Shown here in pieces: positions 1 to 40,507 of a DNA stretch of 40,507 nucleotides (within the stretch, counting starts at the first letter, position 1; the number at the start of each line of letters is the position of its first letter). The notes under the pieces were generated by a model that saw only the letters and a program-made list of their open reading frames with translations, had not been told where the DNA came from and made no database searches. The stretch is from the UHGV virus genome UHGV-0094371, one strand, 5' to 3'. The DNA is from a virus. The position numbers and the translations under genes are program-made.

Positions 1-3000
1 GTTCTGGATCACAAACGGTAAAGCCACGCTGTTACCTGCTGCCGTGGTGACGGCGAAGCGGTCAGCCAGGAAGATAACCTGCGACTGCATGCCTGACGGC
101 GTGTTCCCAACGCCAATCCCCATGCCCGCGGCGTAATACTGACCGTTGCTGGAAACGCCAACCTTGATGTTATACATCGCGCTGAGGTCGCCATTAACGT
201 TGGCTATCGCCTGAGCATTAGTGGTGATGGCTGAGGTATGCCCGTTCACCGTCGCCGTGATGCTGTTTACCTGCGTGGCCATAGCCTGCTGGTAATCGGA
301 GAACGTCTGGTTCAGGCTGTTGATGGATGCCTTGTTGCCGTTAACGTCCGTCTGCAGGCTCAGCAGCGAGCGCGCCGTTGCCTCCCTGTCGTTGACAATC
401 ACCTCATCAATACGGTCCAGATTCGCGCTGTTGCCGGCGACCGATGCAGAAAGGGTTTTACGCGTGGCCACCTGAGCGAGGTTGGCCTGGATTATCGCAA
501 TTGCAGAGTTCTTCACCCCGCCCGTCATGCCGTCCATCGACACAGAAATCTCGTCGATCTTCACTTCGGCCTGAGCCAGCCCGTCAGCGTTCTCCAGGAT
601 GTCTTTCGCCTGCTGCTCGAGTTCGTCGGCATGGTTTTTAATTTCGTCAGCCATGCCAGCAATTTTTTCATTGCTGTCCACCGCGTTCTCGATCAGGTCT
701 TTGAACGTCTCAGACCCTTTGATGTCTTCAAGGATCACATCTGTGATGTCAGAAACGTCGATACTGGCCTGCCCACGAACCCAGCCGGTATAACCTGACT
801 CGTTACCGCTGCGGTCAACCAGCTGCGCGCGGTACCAGAAAATCTGCCCCGCTTTAAGGCCCATCTGCTGATATTTACGCTGTGGGTATGGCACATCAGC
901 CAGCAACATCGCATCGTCCTCAGTACCGGTCAGGCTGTACTGAATTTCCGTCTTCAGTGTATCGTCCGTATTGGCCGGGAACCCCCAGTTCAGCTCGATA
1001 CCGAACACCACGTTTTCAGACGCGATGAAACCCACCGGCTTCGGCGGATTCCCGTCCTTGCCCGTCAGTGTTTTCTCTTCTGAATATCCCCATCCGGACG
1101 AAATTTCAGCGGCATTGATGGCACGCACGCGAACCAGGTAGCGTCCCGCATAAATACCCGGAACATCGAACGATGTGGTGGAGCTGCGCGGCACATTGAC
1201 CCAGTTCCCGTCATTGCGGCGCCATTGTGCTTCATAGGCGATAGCGTTCTGCGCCTGGTACCAGCTCACGCGCATTGTTTCGACGCTGATATTTTGCTGA
1301 ACCACGGAAAACGAGCTGATCACGATATTCGCAGGCGGCGACTGGTTGCCCGGCGGGATCACGCTCACCGGCCGTTGGTCAATGATGGCTCCGGTATCGA
1401 TACGGGCATATTTATCCGGGTCGTGCCATGCGCCGGTAATCGAGAAAGTGCCATCATTGTTATCGGAAACGCTGACAACTCGATACTGCTGCGCGTAGAG
1501 CTCGTCAGATTCAACCACCCAAACAGCTTCGGCCTGTGGCGTCTCACTGTATGCCGTGGTGACTGTGACTGATTCCCCGTTCACGGCCTGAATGGTCCTG
1601 CTCTGCGACGCTCCGGAGGGAAGGTTGAGAATAAGGCGATCACCTGGTGCTGCATCAGCTACGCGGTCAAGTTTGATAACGCGACCGTTAACGGCGCTGA
1701 TGCGGCCGCCCATAACCTTTCCGGAAAGCAGCTCGTCTGCCACGGCGATGATGTAGCCAGGCTGCGGAATGTTTCCGTCCAGCCCGACATCAAACGAAAC
1801 AACGCGATCCTTGTTGTTGGTGAGAATGCCCCAGCGCCCCTTTCGGTTCGCTTCTGACTGCCTGGTGCAGCCGATGGCTGTCATTTCCAGCTGATTGAAG
1901 CCGTATCGCGCTACCAGCGCCTGCTCAAATACCGGCTCCATCGCGTCGGCATAAGCGTTACCCGGGTCTGACCATGAAACCAGCGCTGTGGTGTAGCGGG
2001 TTTTCGTGGTGCTGCTTGAATAGGTGAAGCGACCGCCAACAACGTTGGCGCGCGTGTAGCTGTAATCAACATCTCGGGGCATATCGGCCAGAGCAACGAT
2101 CTGATCGCCTCCCCAGTACGTCATGCCACGGAATATGGCCGCAAAATCACGCAGGACTGTATAAGCGTCGTTTCGGTCCTGGATGTACACGTTGCAGGTA
2201 TAACGTGGTTCGGTACCGTTGCCCCCTTTGCCGTCTGGTACCATCTGATCACAATACTGGGCAACCTGATAAAGCGTCCATTTATCAATATTCGCAGCGG
2301 TCAAACGGTGCCCGAGGCCGAACCGGTCAGAAACAACCAGATCGTAAAAAATCCACGCAGGGTTATCCGTCCATGCCCACTTAAACGCACCGGTCCATGT
2401 ACCGCTATAAGTGCGGGTTTCAGGGTCGTAGGTATCTGGAACGCGGATAACACGGCCGCGGGGCTCGCAGGAGATCTGCGGGATAGAGCCGTTAAACTGA
2501 CTTGAATCGAATTCGATGTAGAGTAGCGCGGTGTTCGGGTAGCGCAGTTTGGCGTCAATCACCTCGGTGAAGCTCTGCAGCATCATCGTGTCGCCGATCT
2601 TCGCGCTGTTCGCATCAGCGGTGATTTTACGCAGACGAAGCGTCCAGGTGCTGCCGGCCTGCGGAAGATCAATACGGTGGCTGCGCTCATAACCGGATGT
2701 GGTCTTACCGGTGACGCTGGTATTCAGCACCGTCTGCCAGGTGCCGCCGTCGGTCTGCAGGTCAATCGCATATTTAATCGAATACCCGACCAGATCGCTG
2801 TCGTCTTCCTGCTGGAAAAGCGATGGCCACTTCAGGCGCAGACGAACAGCAGAAAGCTGGGTATTGGTAAAAGTGCGAGTCCAGGCTGTGGCGCTTGATA
2901 CTTCGGTACCCACGCTGATTTCGTTTTCGGTGCCGGGTATGCCCTGAATGTATTTCTGTGCCTGGGTGCCGGAGCGAAACTCCCAGGTGACGCCGCTGAA

Positions 3001-3204
3001 GTTCTGGGAGCCGTCAGCATTCTCAATAGCGGTACCATCAAGATAAATGTCTTTGCCGGTTAACTGACCTGAGAACTCACCTTCCCCCAGCGCGATTAAT
3101 AATTTTGCCTTCGCTATAGACTGGAGATCATCCGGCTGTTCGGTAGGCGTGCGGGATTTAGATCCTCCACCTTTACAGCCCTTAATTGCGGTTGCGTTTA
3201 CCAT
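1..3204 (-). CDS. J: tail tip / host-specificity protein J (central tail fibre); ORF runs off the window start, so the C-terminal end is missing
   Basis: ATG at 3204 on minus strand; the frame (plus codons 1-3, 4-6 ...) was open in every segment spot-checked (1-60, 601-660, 1201-1260, 1981-2040). N-terminal translation MVNATAIKGCKGGGSKSRTP...NFSGVTWEFRSGTQAQ resembles the lambda J N-terminus as recalled. Position after I in lambda tail order. Confidence 0.8.
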   Translation of the reverse strand, partial: MVNATAIKGCKGGGSKSRTPTEQPDDLQSIAKAKLLIALGEGEFSGQLTGKDIYLDGTAIENADGSQNFSGVTWEFRSGTQAQKYIQGIPGTENEISVGTEVSSATAWTRTFTNTQLSAVRLRLKWPSLFQQEDDSDLVGYSIKYAIDLQTDGGTWQTVLNTSVTGKTTSGYERSHRIDLPQAGSTWTLRLRKITADANSAKIGDTMMLQSFTEVIDAKLRYPNTALLYIEFDSSQFNGSIPQISCEPRGRVIRVPDTYDPETRTYSGTWTGAFKWAWTDNPAWIFYDLVVSDRFGLGHRLTAANIDKWTLYQVAQYCDQMVPDGKGGNGTEPRYTCNVYIQDRNDAYTVLRDFAAIFRGMTYWGGDQIVALADMPRDVDYSYTRANVVGGRFTYSSSTTKTRYTTALVSWSDPGNAYADAMEPVFEQALVARYGFNQLEMTAIGCTRQSEANRKGRWGILTNNKDRVVSFDVGLDGNIPQPGYIIAVADELLSGKVMGGRISAVNGRVIKLDRVADAAPGDRLILNLPSGASQSRTIQAVNGESVTVTTAYSETPQAEAVWVVESDELYAQQYRVVSVSDNNDGTFSITGAWHDPDKYARIDTGAIIDQRPVSVIPPGNQSPPANIVISSFSVVQQNISVETMRVSWYQAQNAIAYEAQWRRNDGNWVNVPRSSTTSFDVPGIYAGRYLVRVRAINAAEISSGWGYSEEKTLTGKDGNPPKPVGFIASENVVFGIELNWGFPANTDDTLKTEIQYSLTGTEDDAMLLADVPYPQRKYQQMGLKAGQIFWYRAQLVDRSGNESGYTGWVRGQASIDVSDITDVILEDIKGSETFKDLIENAVDSNEKIAGMADEIKNHADELEQQAKDILENADGLAQAEVKIDEISVSMDGMTGGVKNSAIAIIQANLAQVATRKTLSASVAGNSANLDRIDEVIVNDREATARSLLSLQTDVNGNKASINSLNQTFSDYQQAMATQVNSITATVNGHTSAITTNAQAIANVNGDLSAMYNIKVGVSSNGQYYAAGMGIGVGNTPSGMQSQVIFLADRFAVTTAAGNSVALPFVIQN

Positions 3205-35934: not shown

Positions 35935-36134
35935 GCGTGATAAAAACTCATACAGGAATTGTTATCACCCGAGACGGTCCGCAGGTAAAAAAACTGCACC
36001 AGACAAAGCGGATGTGGGTGGTCGGAAAAAACGAGTTTTACCACAAAGAAACCGGACGCCGCCACTTTGCAGAAAATACACGCCGCCGACTGCTGATCGA
36101 CAGCATCAAACCTATTGAGGTGGAGCATGTTTAA
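35931..36134 (+). CDS. hypothetical small protein (67 aa)
   Basis: ORF; ATGA coupling with the upstream gene. Confidence 0.35.
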   Translation: MSVIKTHTGIVITRDGPQVKKLHQTKRMWVVGKNEFYHKETGRRHFAENTRRRLLIDSIKPIEVEHV

Positions 36135-36366
36135 ACAGAACGAAAAATCTATCGCTCAAATTGCTGAGTATATCCCACGTGCGTGCCGGGGTATGCAGTT
36201 GCAGGAAGCCAAAGCGCGCCTGGAGAAAAAAATTGCGCTCTATATCGATGACGGCTGTAATGCTGCCGTTCTTAACGCGGCGTTCGCGCCAGCTCTTAAC
36301 AGTCATACACGAGAGTCTTTTTTTTCGTGCATCGCAGCGCAGATCCGTAAAGGAGGCAGCCAGTGA
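36127..36366 (+). CDS. hypothetical protein (ATG at 36127; track start 36115 is TTG)
   Basis: ORF overlapping its neighbours. Confidence 0.3.
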   Translation: MFKQNEKSIAQIAEYIPRACRGMQLQEAKARLEKKIALYIDDGCNAAVLNAAFAPALNSHTRESFFSCIAAQIRKGGSQ

Positions 36367-36917
36367 GCGAGATTAGCTATCAGGCTCTGCGACTGGCGGC
36401 AGAAAATGCAACACCAGGCGAATGGTGTACTGATGACTACCATGGAGTAATTGCCGATGCCGGACTGAACGCCAATTACTACATAGCATCATGCTCAGGA
36501 CCAGATAATCGCGCCAATAAACGATTCATAGCCGCCGCCAATCCTGCCACCGTCTTGGCGCTGCTGGATGAGCTGGAAGCAGCAGAGAAGCGAAACGCTG
36601 AATTACAAAGCGAGAATGCATACATCCGCAACCGGTACAAAGAACTGGACCTATTAATCGGGAAAAACATTCTGGTCATGCAGGCTGCCATTATCGAATG
36701 GCAGGCAACTGGCGACGCTAAGAGCGGACTGGCATGGATTTATAACACACTGTTTGGCCCTGGCGAATTACCGGACGAATCTGAGAAAGATGCTCAGGCC
36801 TACTTTAATCGCAAATGTGCACCGATTGACGAAAAGCTTATGGCGCTTCACAAGTGGTTTTGGGAACAAAGTGAAGCCGAGCGCGCCGCCGCCAACATTG
36901 GTGTGAAGGGGAAGTGA
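36363..36917 (+). CDS. Ead/Ea22-like protein
   Basis: 184 aa; AAANPATVLALLDELEAAEKRNAEL motif. Confidence 0.6.
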   Translation: MSEISYQALRLAAENATPGEWCTDDYHGVIADAGLNANYYIASCSGPDNRANKRFIAAANPATVLALLDELEAAEKRNAELQSENAYIRNRYKELDLLIGKNILVMQAAIIEWQATGDAKSGLAWIYNTLFGPGELPDESEKDAQAYFNRKCAPIDEKLMALHKWFWEQSEAERAAANIGVKGK

Positions 36918-37111
36918 GATGAACGGACAAATCTCAATTGTTCGACCGGGAGCATGTGACGATTGCGAGATACGAATGATTATTCGTCTGGCGAGGGGGA
37001 AACAATAACTGCTCTCATTACTCCTGAAAATCTCGCATTAGCATTAACAGGAAAGTCAGACCTGCCAGTAGAGCTAAAGCTGCGAAATATTGAGATTAAA
37101 GTGAAATAGTT

Positions 37112-37846
37112 ATGAATACTCTTACCAAAGAATGGTTACAGAACACGATTACCAGCATTGAGTCAGCACGGGATGAAATACCGTTCGGACTCGATGAAGA
37201 TCAAAACAACATGCTTACCGCATTAAAAATTGCACTGGCATCACTGGCAGCAGTATCGGATGAACGAGCAGCCTATGAATTATTTATGGAGAAGCGTTTC
37301 AGGGAATCTGTAGATCGCCGTAGGGCAAAAAATGGCGATAGAGAATACATGGCATGGGATATGGCGCTTGGCTGGATTATCTGGTGTCACCGCGCCGCCA
37401 TGCTTCAGGGTAGCCAACCTGTAAGCCAAACTTACAACTTGCCAGAATTAATCGAAGGCATGGAAGTTTCCATTGATGTAAGCACTTGTGATGCTGATTT
37501 AGGTAATCGCTATTTCGGCACCGTCACCGAGGCGTTAGAACTTGATACAGCCAAGAATGGTTACATCCTCCTGGTTCAGGACGCAGAGCCAAACTTCGAT
37601 GTAAATGGCAACTCTCCGGGAACTCCGGATAGTTGGATAAGCTGTAGTGATCAAATGCCTGAAAAGGGCCAGAACGTGCTTATTTCGGTGAATTTCGATA
37701 GCTCTCTGGTTGAACCGCTAATATGCTCCGCACGCTATACCGGAAGCACCTTTCGGCGCGGAGATGCAACGATTAAGCCGGGTAATGGTATTGAGCAAGC
37801 AACTCACTGGATGCCGCTACCGGAACCGCCGCAGGAGGTGAAGTGA
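37112..37846 (+). CDS. DUF551 domain protein
   Basis: 244 aa; C-terminal WISCSDQMPEKGQNVLIS...ATHWMPLPEPP. Confidence 0.55.
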   Translation: MNTLTKEWLQNTITSIESARDEIPFGLDEDQNNMLTALKIALASLAAVSDERAAYELFMEKRFRESVDRRRAKNGDREYMAWDMALGWIIWCHRAAMLQGSQPVSQTYNLPELIEGMEVSIDVSTCDADLGNRYFGTVTEALELDTAKNGYILLVQDAEPNFDVNGNSPGTPDSWISCSDQMPEKGQNVLISVNFDSSLVEPLICSARYTGSTFRRGDATIKPGNGIEQATHWMPLPEPPQEVK

Positions 37847-38418
37847 TGAACAACTTAATGATCGACCTTGAGACGATGGGGAAAAATAAGGATGCACCGA
37901 TCGTTTCCATTGGCGCGGTGTTCTTCACTCCAGAAACCGGAGACATCGGACAAGAATTCTATACGGTTGTTAGCCTGGAAAGTGCTATGGAGCAAGGAGC
38001 TACACCTGACGGCGATACCATCCTGTGGTGGTTGAAACAAAGCCCTGAAGCACGAGCTGCAATCTGTATTGATGATACTTTGTCGATCAGCGATGCTCTC
38101 TCAGAACTAAATCATTTCATTAACCGGCACGCAGCCAATACGAAATATTTAAAAGTCTGGGGTAACGGAGCCACCTTCGACAACGTAATTTTACGTGGAG
38201 CTTATGAGCGAGCAGGACAAATCTGCCCGTGGGCATACTGGAATGACCACGATGTACGCACGATCGTTACGCTTGGGCGTTCCATCGGATTCGACCCCAA
38301 AATGGACATGCCTTTCGATGGCGAACGGCACAACGCCCTGGCCGATGCCCGTCATCAGGCAAAATATGTTTCCGCTATCTGGCAGAAATTAATTCCTGCC
38401 ACCAGCACAGAATTATGA
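37843..38418 (+). CDS. 3'-5' exonuclease (DnaQ-like DEDD fold)
   Basis: 191 aa; Exo I motif IDLETMG; C-terminal H-x4-D (HNALADARH). Confidence 0.6.
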   Translation: MMNNLMIDLETMGKNKDAPIVSIGAVFFTPETGDIGQEFYTVVSLESAMEQGATPDGDTILWWLKQSPEARAAICIDDTLSISDALSELNHFINRHAANTKYLKVWGNGATFDNVILRGAYERAGQICPWAYWNDHDVRTIVTLGRSIGFDPKMDMPFDGERHNALADARHQAKYVSAIWQKLIPATSTEL

Positions 38419-38454
38419 TTTTCCCGGGTGCAGCCGGTTTTGATGGAGAAAATT

Positions 38455-38736
38455 ATGAACACCTTGTTTTTACTGATGGCTGAATTCAATACCCCTAACA
38501 TTGAACTCTCAGCAGTTAGCCAAAAGTACTTTGGCATGAGTCCAGCCACGGCAGAAGCAAAAGCAAACGCTTGTAAGTTGCCCGTTCCAACATATCGCAT
38601 CGGCACATCACAAAAAGCAAAACGTTGCATCAATATTCAGGATCTTGCGGAATACATAGACAAAAGACGAGAAGAAGGACGTATCGAGTGGGAACAGGTC
38701 AGAACAAGCAAACAGAAGGGCAAAGAACATCACTAA
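38455..38736 (+). CDS. putative excisionase / PrtN-family DNA-binding protein
   Basis: 93 aa from the ATG at 38455 (GGAG RBS); last gene of the early-left operon; family recalled from memory. Confidence 0.45.
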   Translation: MNTLFLLMAEFNTPNIELSAVSQKYFGMSPATAEAKANACKLPVPTYRIGTSQKAKRCINIQDLAEYIDKRREEGRIEWEQVRTSKQKGKEHH

Positions 38737-38737
38737 A

Positions 38738-38765
38738 GAAAAAACCCGCCTAAAGGCGGGTTTTC
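38738..38765. terminator. bidirectional intrinsic terminator (A-run, CCCGCC-TAAA-GGCGGG, T4)
   Basis: direct reading immediately after the Xis-like gene. Confidence 0.6.
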
Positions 38766-38783
38766 AAAAAGCACCAGCTATGA

Positions 38784-38957
38784 TCATGCTGCTTTGCGAC
38801 GACGAAGCTTACCCTGCTGCTCTTTACCAGAGACAGTAGCGTGAGTGAACGCATTAGGAGCAGCCTTCATCAGAACTTCAACAGCAGCACCCATACCTGC
38901 GAATGCTTTCATTGTGTCGAACTTAACCTGTGGCTTGGTTGCTTTTTGATCTTTCAT
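38784..38957 (-). CDS. hypothetical small basic protein (57 aa; not in the ORF track)
   Basis: hand translation MKDQKATKPQVKFDTMKAFAGMGAAVEVLMKAAPNAFTHATVSGKEQQGKLRRRKAA; GGGAG RBS 6 nt upstream. Confidence 0.35.
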   Translation of the reverse strand: MKDQKATKPQVKFDTMKAFAGMGAAVEVLMKAAPNAFTHATVSGKEQQGKLRRRKAA

Positions 38958-39153
38958 AGAAAACTCCCGAGACAGTAAAGGCGTCTCTAACCCTCTCTTT
39001 AAAGCTAGCTTGTTTCGCTAACTTATGCCAATCGATCATGTCGATTGGTGACATCGTTTCTTAGTAGTTTAAGCACAAAACGACTGCCATAGATGTACCT
39101 TTAAGGTAATCTGGACGGGTATCCTACAATTTGTAGACCCTTCTCGTCTATAC

Positions 39154-39690
39154 CTACTGAGCAAATTTAAGAAAGATATCCTGCAGCTCATCAATGACTG
39201 CAGACATCACATAACCGCACTGTTCCATGCGGAAACCAAAAGACTCGTAATACTGCACCAGTTCTGGTACTGGCTCTACAATGTGGACAACTTTACATTC
39301 AACAGCTTTACAAAATATAAAAGCACTCATAAGAGTGAGTAAAACCATGCGCCCTTTCAATGGGTGAGATTCATCTTCTCTAGAAAACCTTTCGATCATA
39401 TGGATACGAAAGATGTTTTCTTCAACCCCATAAACACAAATTGCTGCTCCTGATGGTATTCCCTGAACCCGACCTTGCTGAACAAGTTTTATGCAGAACT
39501 CATACTTTTCTCTGGAGTTGCCATAGGTGCTTAACGCATAGTCCCATTCAAGCTCACCATAGCCACCACACAGAATCTTGTAATCATCATCACTGAGCGG
39601 ACCAACAGCAAGAGGTAAGCCGACATGATCAATAATCAACTGGATATTGTTACGTACAGATTGACCTATCTCGTCTAGGGTAAGCATCAT
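39154..39690 (-). CDS. putative GNAT-family acetyltransferase
   Basis: 178 aa; C-terminal YYESFGF motif typical of GNAT; TATAAT-like -10 upstream; AT-rich surroundings. Confidence 0.4.
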   Translation of the reverse strand: MMLTLDEIGQSVRNNIQLIIDHVGLPLAVGPLSDDDYKILCGGYGELEWDYALSTYGNSREKYEFCIKLVQQGRVQGIPSGAAICVYGVEENIFRIHMIERFSREDESHPLKGRMVLLTLMSAFIFCKAVECKVVHIVEPVPELVQYYESFGFRMEQCGYVMSAVIDELQDIFLKFAQ

Positions 39691-40231
39691 AGACTCTCAA
39701 GCGGAACACTAAAAATCTCATTATATCTCATTCTGATGCCCGGCATGGATTACACCTTGAAATGAAAACACCGGGTTCCCAATAGGCTCCCACAAAGTGT
39801 ATAACTACTTGTTTTTCAAAAACGGTACATCCTATCGAGCATTGGTGCAACGCTAAACCGACCACTCCAGTGAACGTCAGTTTTTTCAGGCATTGCGCTG
39901 GTTTGGTTGATTTTTTGCATTTCAGAATTACCGTGCATTTTCAAATGTAGAGATTATTTTATCGATATATCATGGGGTTATGTTATTCAGCATCACTGTT
40001 CAGGAGGCTCAATAGCGGGGTACTATACCATAACAACAGGAAGCGCCTGTCTCATTGCAAAAGAAAATTGAGATCCTCTCAAGGCATGAAGCTCTCACGA
40101 AGTGATGGAAATAATCTTATTAGCCGTTAACTTTATTAAGGCCAATGATAAACAATCCAGGTTCGACGATAAATAAAAAATCACACATTAAACTCTGGTG
40201 ATATATCTCCCTGCTAATAGCATTGATAGAG

Positions 40232-40264
40232 AAAAAAGAACCCAATAAATATTGGGTCCTTTTA
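40232..40264. terminator. bidirectional hairpin terminator (ACCCAAT-AAAT-ATTGGGT flanked by A6 and T4)
   Basis: direct reading; about 40 nt downstream of the partial minus-strand ORF. Confidence 0.5.
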
Positions 40265-40300
40265 TATAATGCCTTCCATACTATCGAAGAACTTCACATA

Positions 40301-40507
40301 TTATTTCTCCGATTTAACCCCGAACAAATCATAAATTAATTTAGAAGTGTCTGTAAGTATTTTAATCTCTTCCTTTGAGGTTGGGTCAAACGACTTCGCG
40401 AAGCTAATTAATTGTGGTGCAGCATCTCGCATTTTGCTTAAAATATCAGGATCGAGCGTTCCTTCATTCACCAGATGTGACATCTTATCCAGATAGCCAT
40501 CAAAATT
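40301..40507 (-). CDS. hypothetical protein, partial (frame stays open to the window end)
   Basis: no in-frame stop between 40483 and 40507. Confidence 0.35.
   Translation of the reverse strand, partial: NFDGYLDKMSHLVNEGTLDPDILSKMRDAAPQLISFAKSFDPTSKEEIKILTDTSKLIYDLFGVKSEK

Follow-up and report, generated by a model that had tools for sequence, protein, structure and literature searches.

Genes and features at the end of the window

We examined the distal end of the UHGV virus genome UHGV-0094371, a 40,507-nucleotide (nt) stretch of DNA (hereafter the window) that derives from a human-gut metagenome scaffold of 40,970 bp (European Nucleotide Archive, ERZ28578171; sample SAMEA3136634). The scaffold ends inside gene J, which encodes the tail tip, and that end is position 1 of the window. 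At the other end, the early-left operon closes with an exonuclease gene and a gene for an excisionase-like (Xis-like) protein, and these are followed by a hairpin, two minus-strand genes that we refer to as the cargo cassette, one arm of an attachment site and a final stretch of low GC content (Table 1). A first-pass annotation of the sequence had remarked that no integrase gene (int) follows xis, and had proposed either that the prophage is int-deficient (cryptic) or that cargo has been inserted between xis and int or the attachment site. We found instead that the region is very probably the xis-side (right-hand) end of an mEp460-like lambdoid prophage sitting in the 5′ end of Escherichia coli dusA. 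A prophage end of this type is ordinary, and its architecture is already documented.

Table 1. Features of the last 2.7 kb of the window, in window coordinates
Feature	Position	Strand	Evidence or remark
3′–5′ exonuclease gene, penultimate in the early-left operon	37846–38418	+	PF16473 Rv2179c-like, E = 8e-76; exonuclease annotation in DEC9B and mEp460
Candidate excisionase/recombination directionality factor (RDF) gene, PrtN family, 102 aa	38428–38736	+	PF11112; phrog_1300 "excisionase"
Hairpin terminator, common to the convergent early-left operon and cargo cassette	38741–38764	.	Perfect 11-bp stem AAAACCCGCCT/AGGCGGGTTTT
57-aa basic protein gene, second in the cargo cassette	38784–38957	-	pI 10.5; phrog_2741 (function unknown)
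Dyad-symmetric element CCAATCGA-N5-TCGATTGG	39028–39048	.	In the spacer of the two cassette genes, ∼90 nt upstream of the small gene's ATG
178-aa GNAT-fold protein gene, first in the cargo cassette	39154–39690	-	
Phage arm of the attachment site (P arm)	39691–39834	.	Candidate arm-type site GGTTCCC at 39774–39780; TATAAT at 39720–39725 (-)
Putative crossover core TCGAGCAT, prophage/chromosome junction on the xis side	39835–39842	.	Four-way attachment-site alignment
Displaced native dusA 5′ end, codons 1–35	39834–39938	-	MHGNSEMQKINQTSAMPEKTDVHWSGRFSVAPMLD, identical to K-12 dusA codons 1–35
E. coli chromosome: dusA upstream and dusA–yjbM intergenic region	39939–40300	.	K-12 identity
3′ end of chromosomal yjbM (DUF2713), last 68 codons, running off the window edge	40301–40507	-	Translation equals the K-12 YjbM C terminus

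A megablast search of phage genomes aligned window positions 37800–39941 with phage mEp460 (NC_019716/JQ182728) at 97.8% identity, and the match stopped there. Genes gp22–gp26 of mEp460 show the same order as the window, namely the exonuclease gene, the PrtN-family excisionase gene, the 57-aa gene, the 178-aa gene and an arm of the phage attachment site (attP); the difference is that the window represents the integrated form, continuing into chromosome and not into int and dinI. From 39835 to 40507, 670 of 673 bases are identical to E. coli K-12. The last 2.7 kb of the window as a whole are 99.9% identical to E. coli strain DEC9B. Of 5426 complete E. coli genomes, 4468 matched the chromosomal part of the query and only 333 covered at least 80% of the whole query, as expected if the distal part is ordinary chromosome. 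Gene J (window 1–3204, minus strand) matched the complete E. coli genomes at only ∼91% identity; the prophage is therefore mosaic, and its assembly broke in a tail gene.

The GC content is 0.33–0.43 over the remaining 800 bases of the window and 0.33–0.41 beyond 39900. About 600 bp of this DNA had been read as ORF-free, AT-rich cargo (ORF, open reading frame). Its near-identity to K-12 shows that it is host DNA, neither phage nor cargo, and it does hold coding sequence from two genes, namely the remnant of dusA and the 3′-terminal part of yjbM. The hairpin of the yjbM terminator, at 40234–40263, was also picked up as a terminator-like site in our scan.

The call of the Xis-like gene on the plus strand was sound. 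Its product matched the PrtN family (PF11112) with an E-value of 4e-23 and 81.8 bits (cutoff 24.2) and the "excisionase" family phrog_1300 with an E-value of 8e-40, and it is the counterpart of mEp460 gp25, which carries the annotation "excisionase"; RefSeq places the start of the gene at the ATG at 38455. The hairpin behind it had been described as a bidirectional terminator. The perfect stem is there, and a consensus scan called it terminator-like on the minus strand, but the plus-strand half of the description lacks support, with just TTTTC after the stem on that side. The hairpin is kept 3′ of the small gene in Citrobacter and in phage Lys8385Vzw.

The attachment site in dusA and the position of the integrase in relatives

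We located the prophage/chromosome junction by a four-way alignment of the window, the mEp460 attP, the empty site of K-12 (attB) and the far junction of the DEC9B prophage. Comparison with an empty site had been suggested in the first-pass annotation; the four-way alignment placed the junction at 39835–39842. The 8-bp core TCGAGCAT, which corresponds to dusA codons 33–35, is identical in all four sequences, and the flanks turn from phage type to chromosome type exactly there. Of the 40 window bases that precede the core, 38 agree with mEp460 attP and 14 with K-12; of the 125 that follow it, all agree with K-12 attB and 90 with attP. The far junction of DEC9B is the mirror image, with 40/40 bases of attB to the left and 116/125 bases of attP to the right. 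Imperfect direct repeats are present: on the right-hand side of the core, attP and attB are homologous over ∼105 nt, at roughly 80% identity. Rfam and tRNA scans of 38300–40507 and 36000–40507 returned only subthreshold terminator look-alikes and no tRNA; the attachment site is therefore not a tRNA gene. In DEC9B and in O157:H7 strain 493/89, the displaced 5′ end of dusA carries the annotation of a truncated tRNA-dihydrouridine synthase. On the phage side, the arm beside int in mEp460 attP encodes MHDNPEIQKTNQTSVMPEKTGAYWSSRFSIAPMLD, a diverged copy of the native 35-codon dusA start MHGNSEMQKINQTSAMPEKTDVHWSGRFSVAPMLD.

Integrase is encoded nowhere in the window, as had been noted for the part after xis: a tblastn search with the mEp460 integrase (Int) gave a best E-value of 0.4, and a DinI query also found nothing. 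Related genomes show where the gene belongs. The free genomes of mEp460, SKA5 and Lys8385Vzw share the order exo, xis, reverse-strand cargo, a dusA-like segment (attP), int and dinI, with int being 1098 bp long and encoding a tyrosine integrase (PF00589). Because attP lies between xis and int in the free phages, integration puts the two genes at opposite ends of the prophage. DEC9B has exactly this arrangement. Its near end carries xis, the two cargo genes, a truncated dusA and a DUF2713 gene, and its far end, ∼40 kb away, carries the genes for DinI and a tyrosine integrase, a full-length dusA (1038 bp, with a phage-type N terminus) and pspG. The same xis-side end was found in O157:H7 493/89 and in Salmonella.

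The layouts of these relatives show how the region very probably formed. On the circular phage genome, exo, xis and the terminator are followed by the short cargo cassette in reverse orientation, then by attP, int and dinI, and then by the genes for the tail fibers. Recombination at the 8-bp core places xis and the cargo at one prophage end, with int at the opposite one. The diverged dusA codons 1–35 of the int-side arm rebuild an intact dusA, and the native codons 1–35 stay beside the cargo, as seen in the window, where everything to the right of 39842 is host chromosome. In such a lysogen, int would need a promoter of its own within the int-side junction, and the orphaned dusA promoter would point into the cargo cassette. 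The motif GGTTCCC occurs four times in mEp460 attP (L002:7973–8210): the xis-side arm has one copy, and the other three lie in the ∼60 nt that precede int. These repeats are plausible candidates for integrase arm-type sites that overlap the expected int promoter. Given that int needs a promoter of its own in the int-side junction, where the three candidate sites lie, int and xis would be transcriptionally uncoupled.

In the related prophage of DEC9B, nleG7, which encodes a type III effector, and additional genes lie between the tail fiber genes and dinI–int (L004:15703–18050). These genes make up a second cargo region, close to the end that carries int.

The two explanations first offered for the missing gene can be weighed on this basis. 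That the prophage of this strain is int-deficient, and so locked in the chromosome as a cryptic element, might be argued from a 40.5-kb window without an integrase gene and from a far end that is out of view, since the source scaffold ends in gene J. We consider it improbable, and nothing in the data points to it. Prophages of this type normally lack int at their xis-side end (mEp460, SKA5, Lys8385Vzw and DEC9B all conform), the head, tail, lysis, replication and immunity ORFs in the window look complete, the xis-side attachment arm is near-identical to that of mEp460, and a matching integrase of the mEp460 type is common in E. coli, being present in 729 of 5426 complete genomes. The second explanation, in which cargo was inserted between xis and int so that int and an attachment site lie further right, beyond the window, is half correct: the slot between xis and the attachment site does carry exchangeable cargo. 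An integrase beyond that cargo, though, is refuted by chromosome identity. The prophage ends at 39835–39842, the 665 bases that follow, comprising the dusA remnant and then yjbM, match K-12 at 99.6% identity, and a search for a recombinase further right has nothing to find in related genomes, which continue past yjbM with zur, yjbJ, dinF and lexA. We regard the chance of an int on that side as next to nil.

The xis-side end of an mEp460-like prophage is thus a caution for prophage callers, as an end can look integrase-less when attP sits between xis and int. The same caution applies to calling a prophage cryptic when a single end or a broken contig is all there is to judge by.

Relation to documented integration modules

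Elements with dusA-specific integrases have been described previously (Farrugia et al. 2015, NAR 43:4547, PMC4482086). The prophage shares with them insertion into the 5′ end of dusA (here with the core at codons 33–35), a native 5′ remnant at the other junction, and junctions in the form of imperfect direct repeats. Two further shared features are seen in its relatives and lie outside the window itself: a replacement dusA 5′ end supplied by the element (mEp460 attP and DEC9B) and an integrase gene beside dusA (DEC9B and the phage genomes). The difference is that we are dealing with a complete-looking lambdoid phage with a PrtN-family RDF; the likeness drawn here is one of site and layout. The region is an example of dusA-targeting phages that restore the gene they enter, with the host promoter orphaned and directed at their cargo.

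A separation of int from the RDF gene is known from KplE1 and HK620, in which the int promoter lies in the int-side attachment region (Panis et al. 2010, PLoS Genet, PMC2951348). Uncoupled transcription of int and RDF would be common to the KplE1/HK620/Sf6 module and the prophage studied here, the opposite-end layout being the one seen in DEC9B, and the related prophage of DEC9B also has early genes annotated as yfdP/yfdQ/yfdR-like, as in KplE1. Unlike in that module, the target is the protein-coding gene dusA and not a tRNA gene, and the RDF belongs to the PrtN family and not to TorI; autoregulation of int would be a further parallel, proposed here by extension. With lambda, the prophage shares an early-left operon that ends with exo- and xis-type genes, and it would be expected to share a tyrosine integrase with arm-type sites. 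In lambda, however, int directly follows xis, both are transcribed from pL, and attP lies beyond int, whereas in the window xis is followed by a terminator, two reverse-strand genes and an attachment junction.

Several points weigh against placing the region at the xis-side end of an intact dusA-type prophage, or against parts of that picture. The scaffold end in gene J hides this strain's own int, so its integrase is out of view. The role of the PrtN-family protein as an excisionase is taken from annotation, the crossover position within the 8-bp core is a prediction from aligned sequences, and both the promoter of int and read-through from the dusA promoter are postulated. The 21-bp semiconserved attachment-site consensus of Farrugia et al. 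is available as a figure logo only. Finally, in the part of the dusA upstream region that the window covers, a consensus scan called nothing promoter-like.

The cargo slot and its two-gene cassette

The slot between the xis terminator and attP varies among sibling phages. In mEp460 and the window it holds the 57-aa and 178-aa genes. In SKA5 and Lys8385Vzw the 57-aa gene is kept, and genes for a Panacea-domain (SocA-like) protein (PF13274, E = 2e-19) and a 139-aa partner replace the 178-aa gene. In PhiR40_1 and PhiR55_1 a YafO/YafM pair is annotated; in PhiR40_1 the 144-aa protein falls into the YafO toxin family (PF13957), and its partner has 179 aa. Since siblings carry Panacea or YafO pairs at this position (L007:3698–4686, L006:3667–4655 and L005:3420–4410), the slot is an exchange point for toxin–antitoxin-type cargo. 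The slot cargo genes all lie on the minus strand; they converge on the early-left operon and run in the same direction as the orphaned dusA promoter. The native dusA upstream region and first 35 codons (39690–39944, minus strand) point into the cargo. The ORF of the dusA remnant stops at 39816, and no terminator is predicted ahead of position 39690, where the 178-aa gene starts. Transcription of the cassette from the host dusA promoter could thus occur, but in lysogens only, and such host-driven expression is a possibility that follows from the arrangement of the genes.

The cassette is the only part of the region with research potential. It occupies the kinds of slot in which toxin–antitoxin and anti-phage systems are found, yet it is absent from current defense databases. 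We compiled 25 loci, comprising the window, loci from exact-protein look-ups and 18 species genomes found with a profile of the 178-aa protein (cassette loci: window 38784–39690, minus strand; L008–L013, L021–L024, L026 and L031–L048). In 25 of 25, from Escherichia to Shewanella, the GNAT-fold gene is followed by a homolog of the 57-aa gene on the same strand and in the same order; where the GNAT gene is intact (24 loci), the spacer measures 77–196 nt. Divergence runs in parallel in the two proteins, with 28%–29% identity in the small protein where the GNAT protein has 39%–46%. The small gene accompanies all 24 intact GNAT genes, and no locus has the GNAT gene only; in Photorhabdus temperata (L048:5940–6640) the GNAT gene is frameshifted and the small gene intact. 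Loss within the cassette thus looks one-sided, with the small gene surviving without the GNAT gene.

The cassette is widespread in Enterobacterales; among 5426 complete E. coli genomes, 356 carry it, with O157:H7 among them. Its sites are unrelated to one another. It occupies the xis–att slot in E. coli and Salmonella, a position between the Q antiterminator and the lysis genes in lambdoid prophages of Citrobacter and Edwardsiella, the inside of a myovirus-type tail cluster in Photorhabdus, and the gpA–portal region of a P2-like prophage in Edwardsiella, a region that Rousset et al. (2022, PMC9122126) describe for P2-like phages as a hotspot of anti-phage genes. Other copies lie in an island beside a GmrSD-like gene and smpB, downstream from a CI-like repressor gene, or in plain chromosome. 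The cassette is a mobile two-gene unit, for which a toxin–antitoxin or defense role is a reasonable guess; a toxin–antidote or phage-exclusion module is our best one.

Naming the two proteins through Pfam, NCBIfam, PADLOC and the Protein Data Bank (PDB) gave nothing informative, and only PHROGs of unknown function matched. For the 178-aa protein, no Pfam or NCBIfam family, and hence no curated GNAT model, was hit at E ≤ 1, and no GNAT was among its matches in PDB sequence searches with either the single sequence or a profile. The defense models of PADLOC-DB v2 had no family at E ≤ 1 for either cassette protein. Protein accessions and PHROG identifiers matched no papers in the text that could be searched.

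The 178-aa gene had been annotated as GNAT-like, with the TacT/AtaT toxins as possible relatives. A fold test did identify the protein as GNAT, and it is GNAT-like at the level of the fold, but no subfamily can be assigned, and specifically not the TacT/AtaT toxins. It has no sequence similarity to TacT, AtaT or KacT, and NatD, Ard1 and RimI score equally well. When the family was aligned by eye with the canonical GNAT motifs, following the order of secondary-structure elements, the position of motif A was occupied by an invariant, noncanonical HPLxGxM instead of the usual acetyl-CoA loop motif (Q/RxxGxG/A); a YxxxGF motif (Y148, G152, F153) is also invariant in the family.

The gene context likewise differs from that of TacAT, AtaRT and KacAT. 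In those systems a DUF1778/ribbon-helix-helix (RHH) antitoxin gene lies directly upstream, whereas here the upstream position is taken by the 144-nt attachment arm, which contains no ORF, and the 57-aa partner lies downstream, 77–196 nt away, with no match to Pfam, DUF1778 or RHH. A small protein and a GNAT-family protein of ∼180 aa also form the two-gene module TopAI (YjhX)–YjhQ of K-12 (Yamaguchi and Inouye 2015, PMC4666372), in which, differently, the toxin is the small protein and its gene comes first. We tried homology to this module and ruled it out, with hhalign probabilities of 0.44% for YjhX and 0.08% for YjhQ.

The 178-aa gene had also been credited with its own promoter. There is one perfect TATAAT on the minus strand within the attachment arm, but it has no usable −35 element, and the scan calls no promoter. 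This hexamer is overlapped by a direct repeat, ATCTCATT, with a spacing of 10 nt at 39715–39732; one copy has diverged in mEp460. The repeat could be a binding site for the RDF or Int, or belong to a −10 element of the cassette.

The small gene was correctly described as a basic 57-aa ORF on the minus strand. AlphaFold2 predicted a helix at residues 15–41 with disordered basic tails, at low confidence (pLDDT, the predicted local distance difference test, of 63), too low to warrant a fold search. The protein is 96% identical in a Citrobacter phage, with two residues changed and most DNA differences being synonymous; the small gene of Lys8385Vzw (L007:3485–3658) has three DNA differences from the window, all nonsynonymous. 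The protein ends in ...RRRKAA. The ...KAA tail is conserved and looks like a possible ClpX-type recognition tail.

Two accounts of the cassette deserve weight. In the first, to which we give about an even chance, the GNAT-fold protein simply serves lysogenic conversion, as an enzyme acetylating some molecule of the host or of a phage, and the 57-aa protein is an unrelated neighbor or an accessory and no toxin–antidote partner. Its fold matches cannot separate the protein from N-terminal acetyltransferases, SpeG and RimI, PADLOC has no match, the gap in the 24 intact pairs exceeds that of typical toxin–antitoxin pairs, and the small gene also occurs without the GNAT gene, beside the Panacea-domain pair. 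Such an account sits less well with adjacency, strand and order kept in all 25 loci and with divergence that tracks between the two proteins. Every one of the 24 intact GNAT genes has its small gene, and the reverse is untrue (L048, SKA5, Lys8385Vzw). The cassette also occupies slots elsewhere filled by toxin–antitoxin or defense genes.

The second account is more tentative, and we hold it to be the less probable of the two. The cassette may be an undescribed mobile toxin–antidote or phage-exclusion module in which the GNAT protein would be the harmful or effector partner, the small and largely disordered protein, with its protease-tail-like C terminus, would act as a labile neutralizer, and the pair might be switched on in dusA lysogens by the orphaned dusA promoter. 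Co-occurrence, in-step divergence, one-sided loss and the slot contexts fit a toxin–antidote or exclusion module without proving it.

An 8-bp inverted repeat in the spacer of the cassette had also been pointed out. It is present, but its arms lie at 39028–39035 and 39041–39048, ∼9 nt to the left of the position first given. The window contains 17 perfect 8-bp repeats with spacers of 0–10 nt, so the dyad by itself is not beyond chance. A universal role in the cassette was considered and dropped, the dyad being confined to a subset of Enterobacteriaceae and absent in Edwardsiella, Photorhabdus and Shewanella. Salmonella, Pseudescherichia and Enterobacter retain the form CCAATCG-N7-CGATTGG, although the eighth (innermost) pair, A-T in the window, is G-C in Salmonella; Citrobacter has weaker arms that include one T-G position (loci compared with the window: L026, L032, L039 and L008). 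The dyad is probably a local regulatory element of the small gene, acting as an operator or an RNA hairpin.

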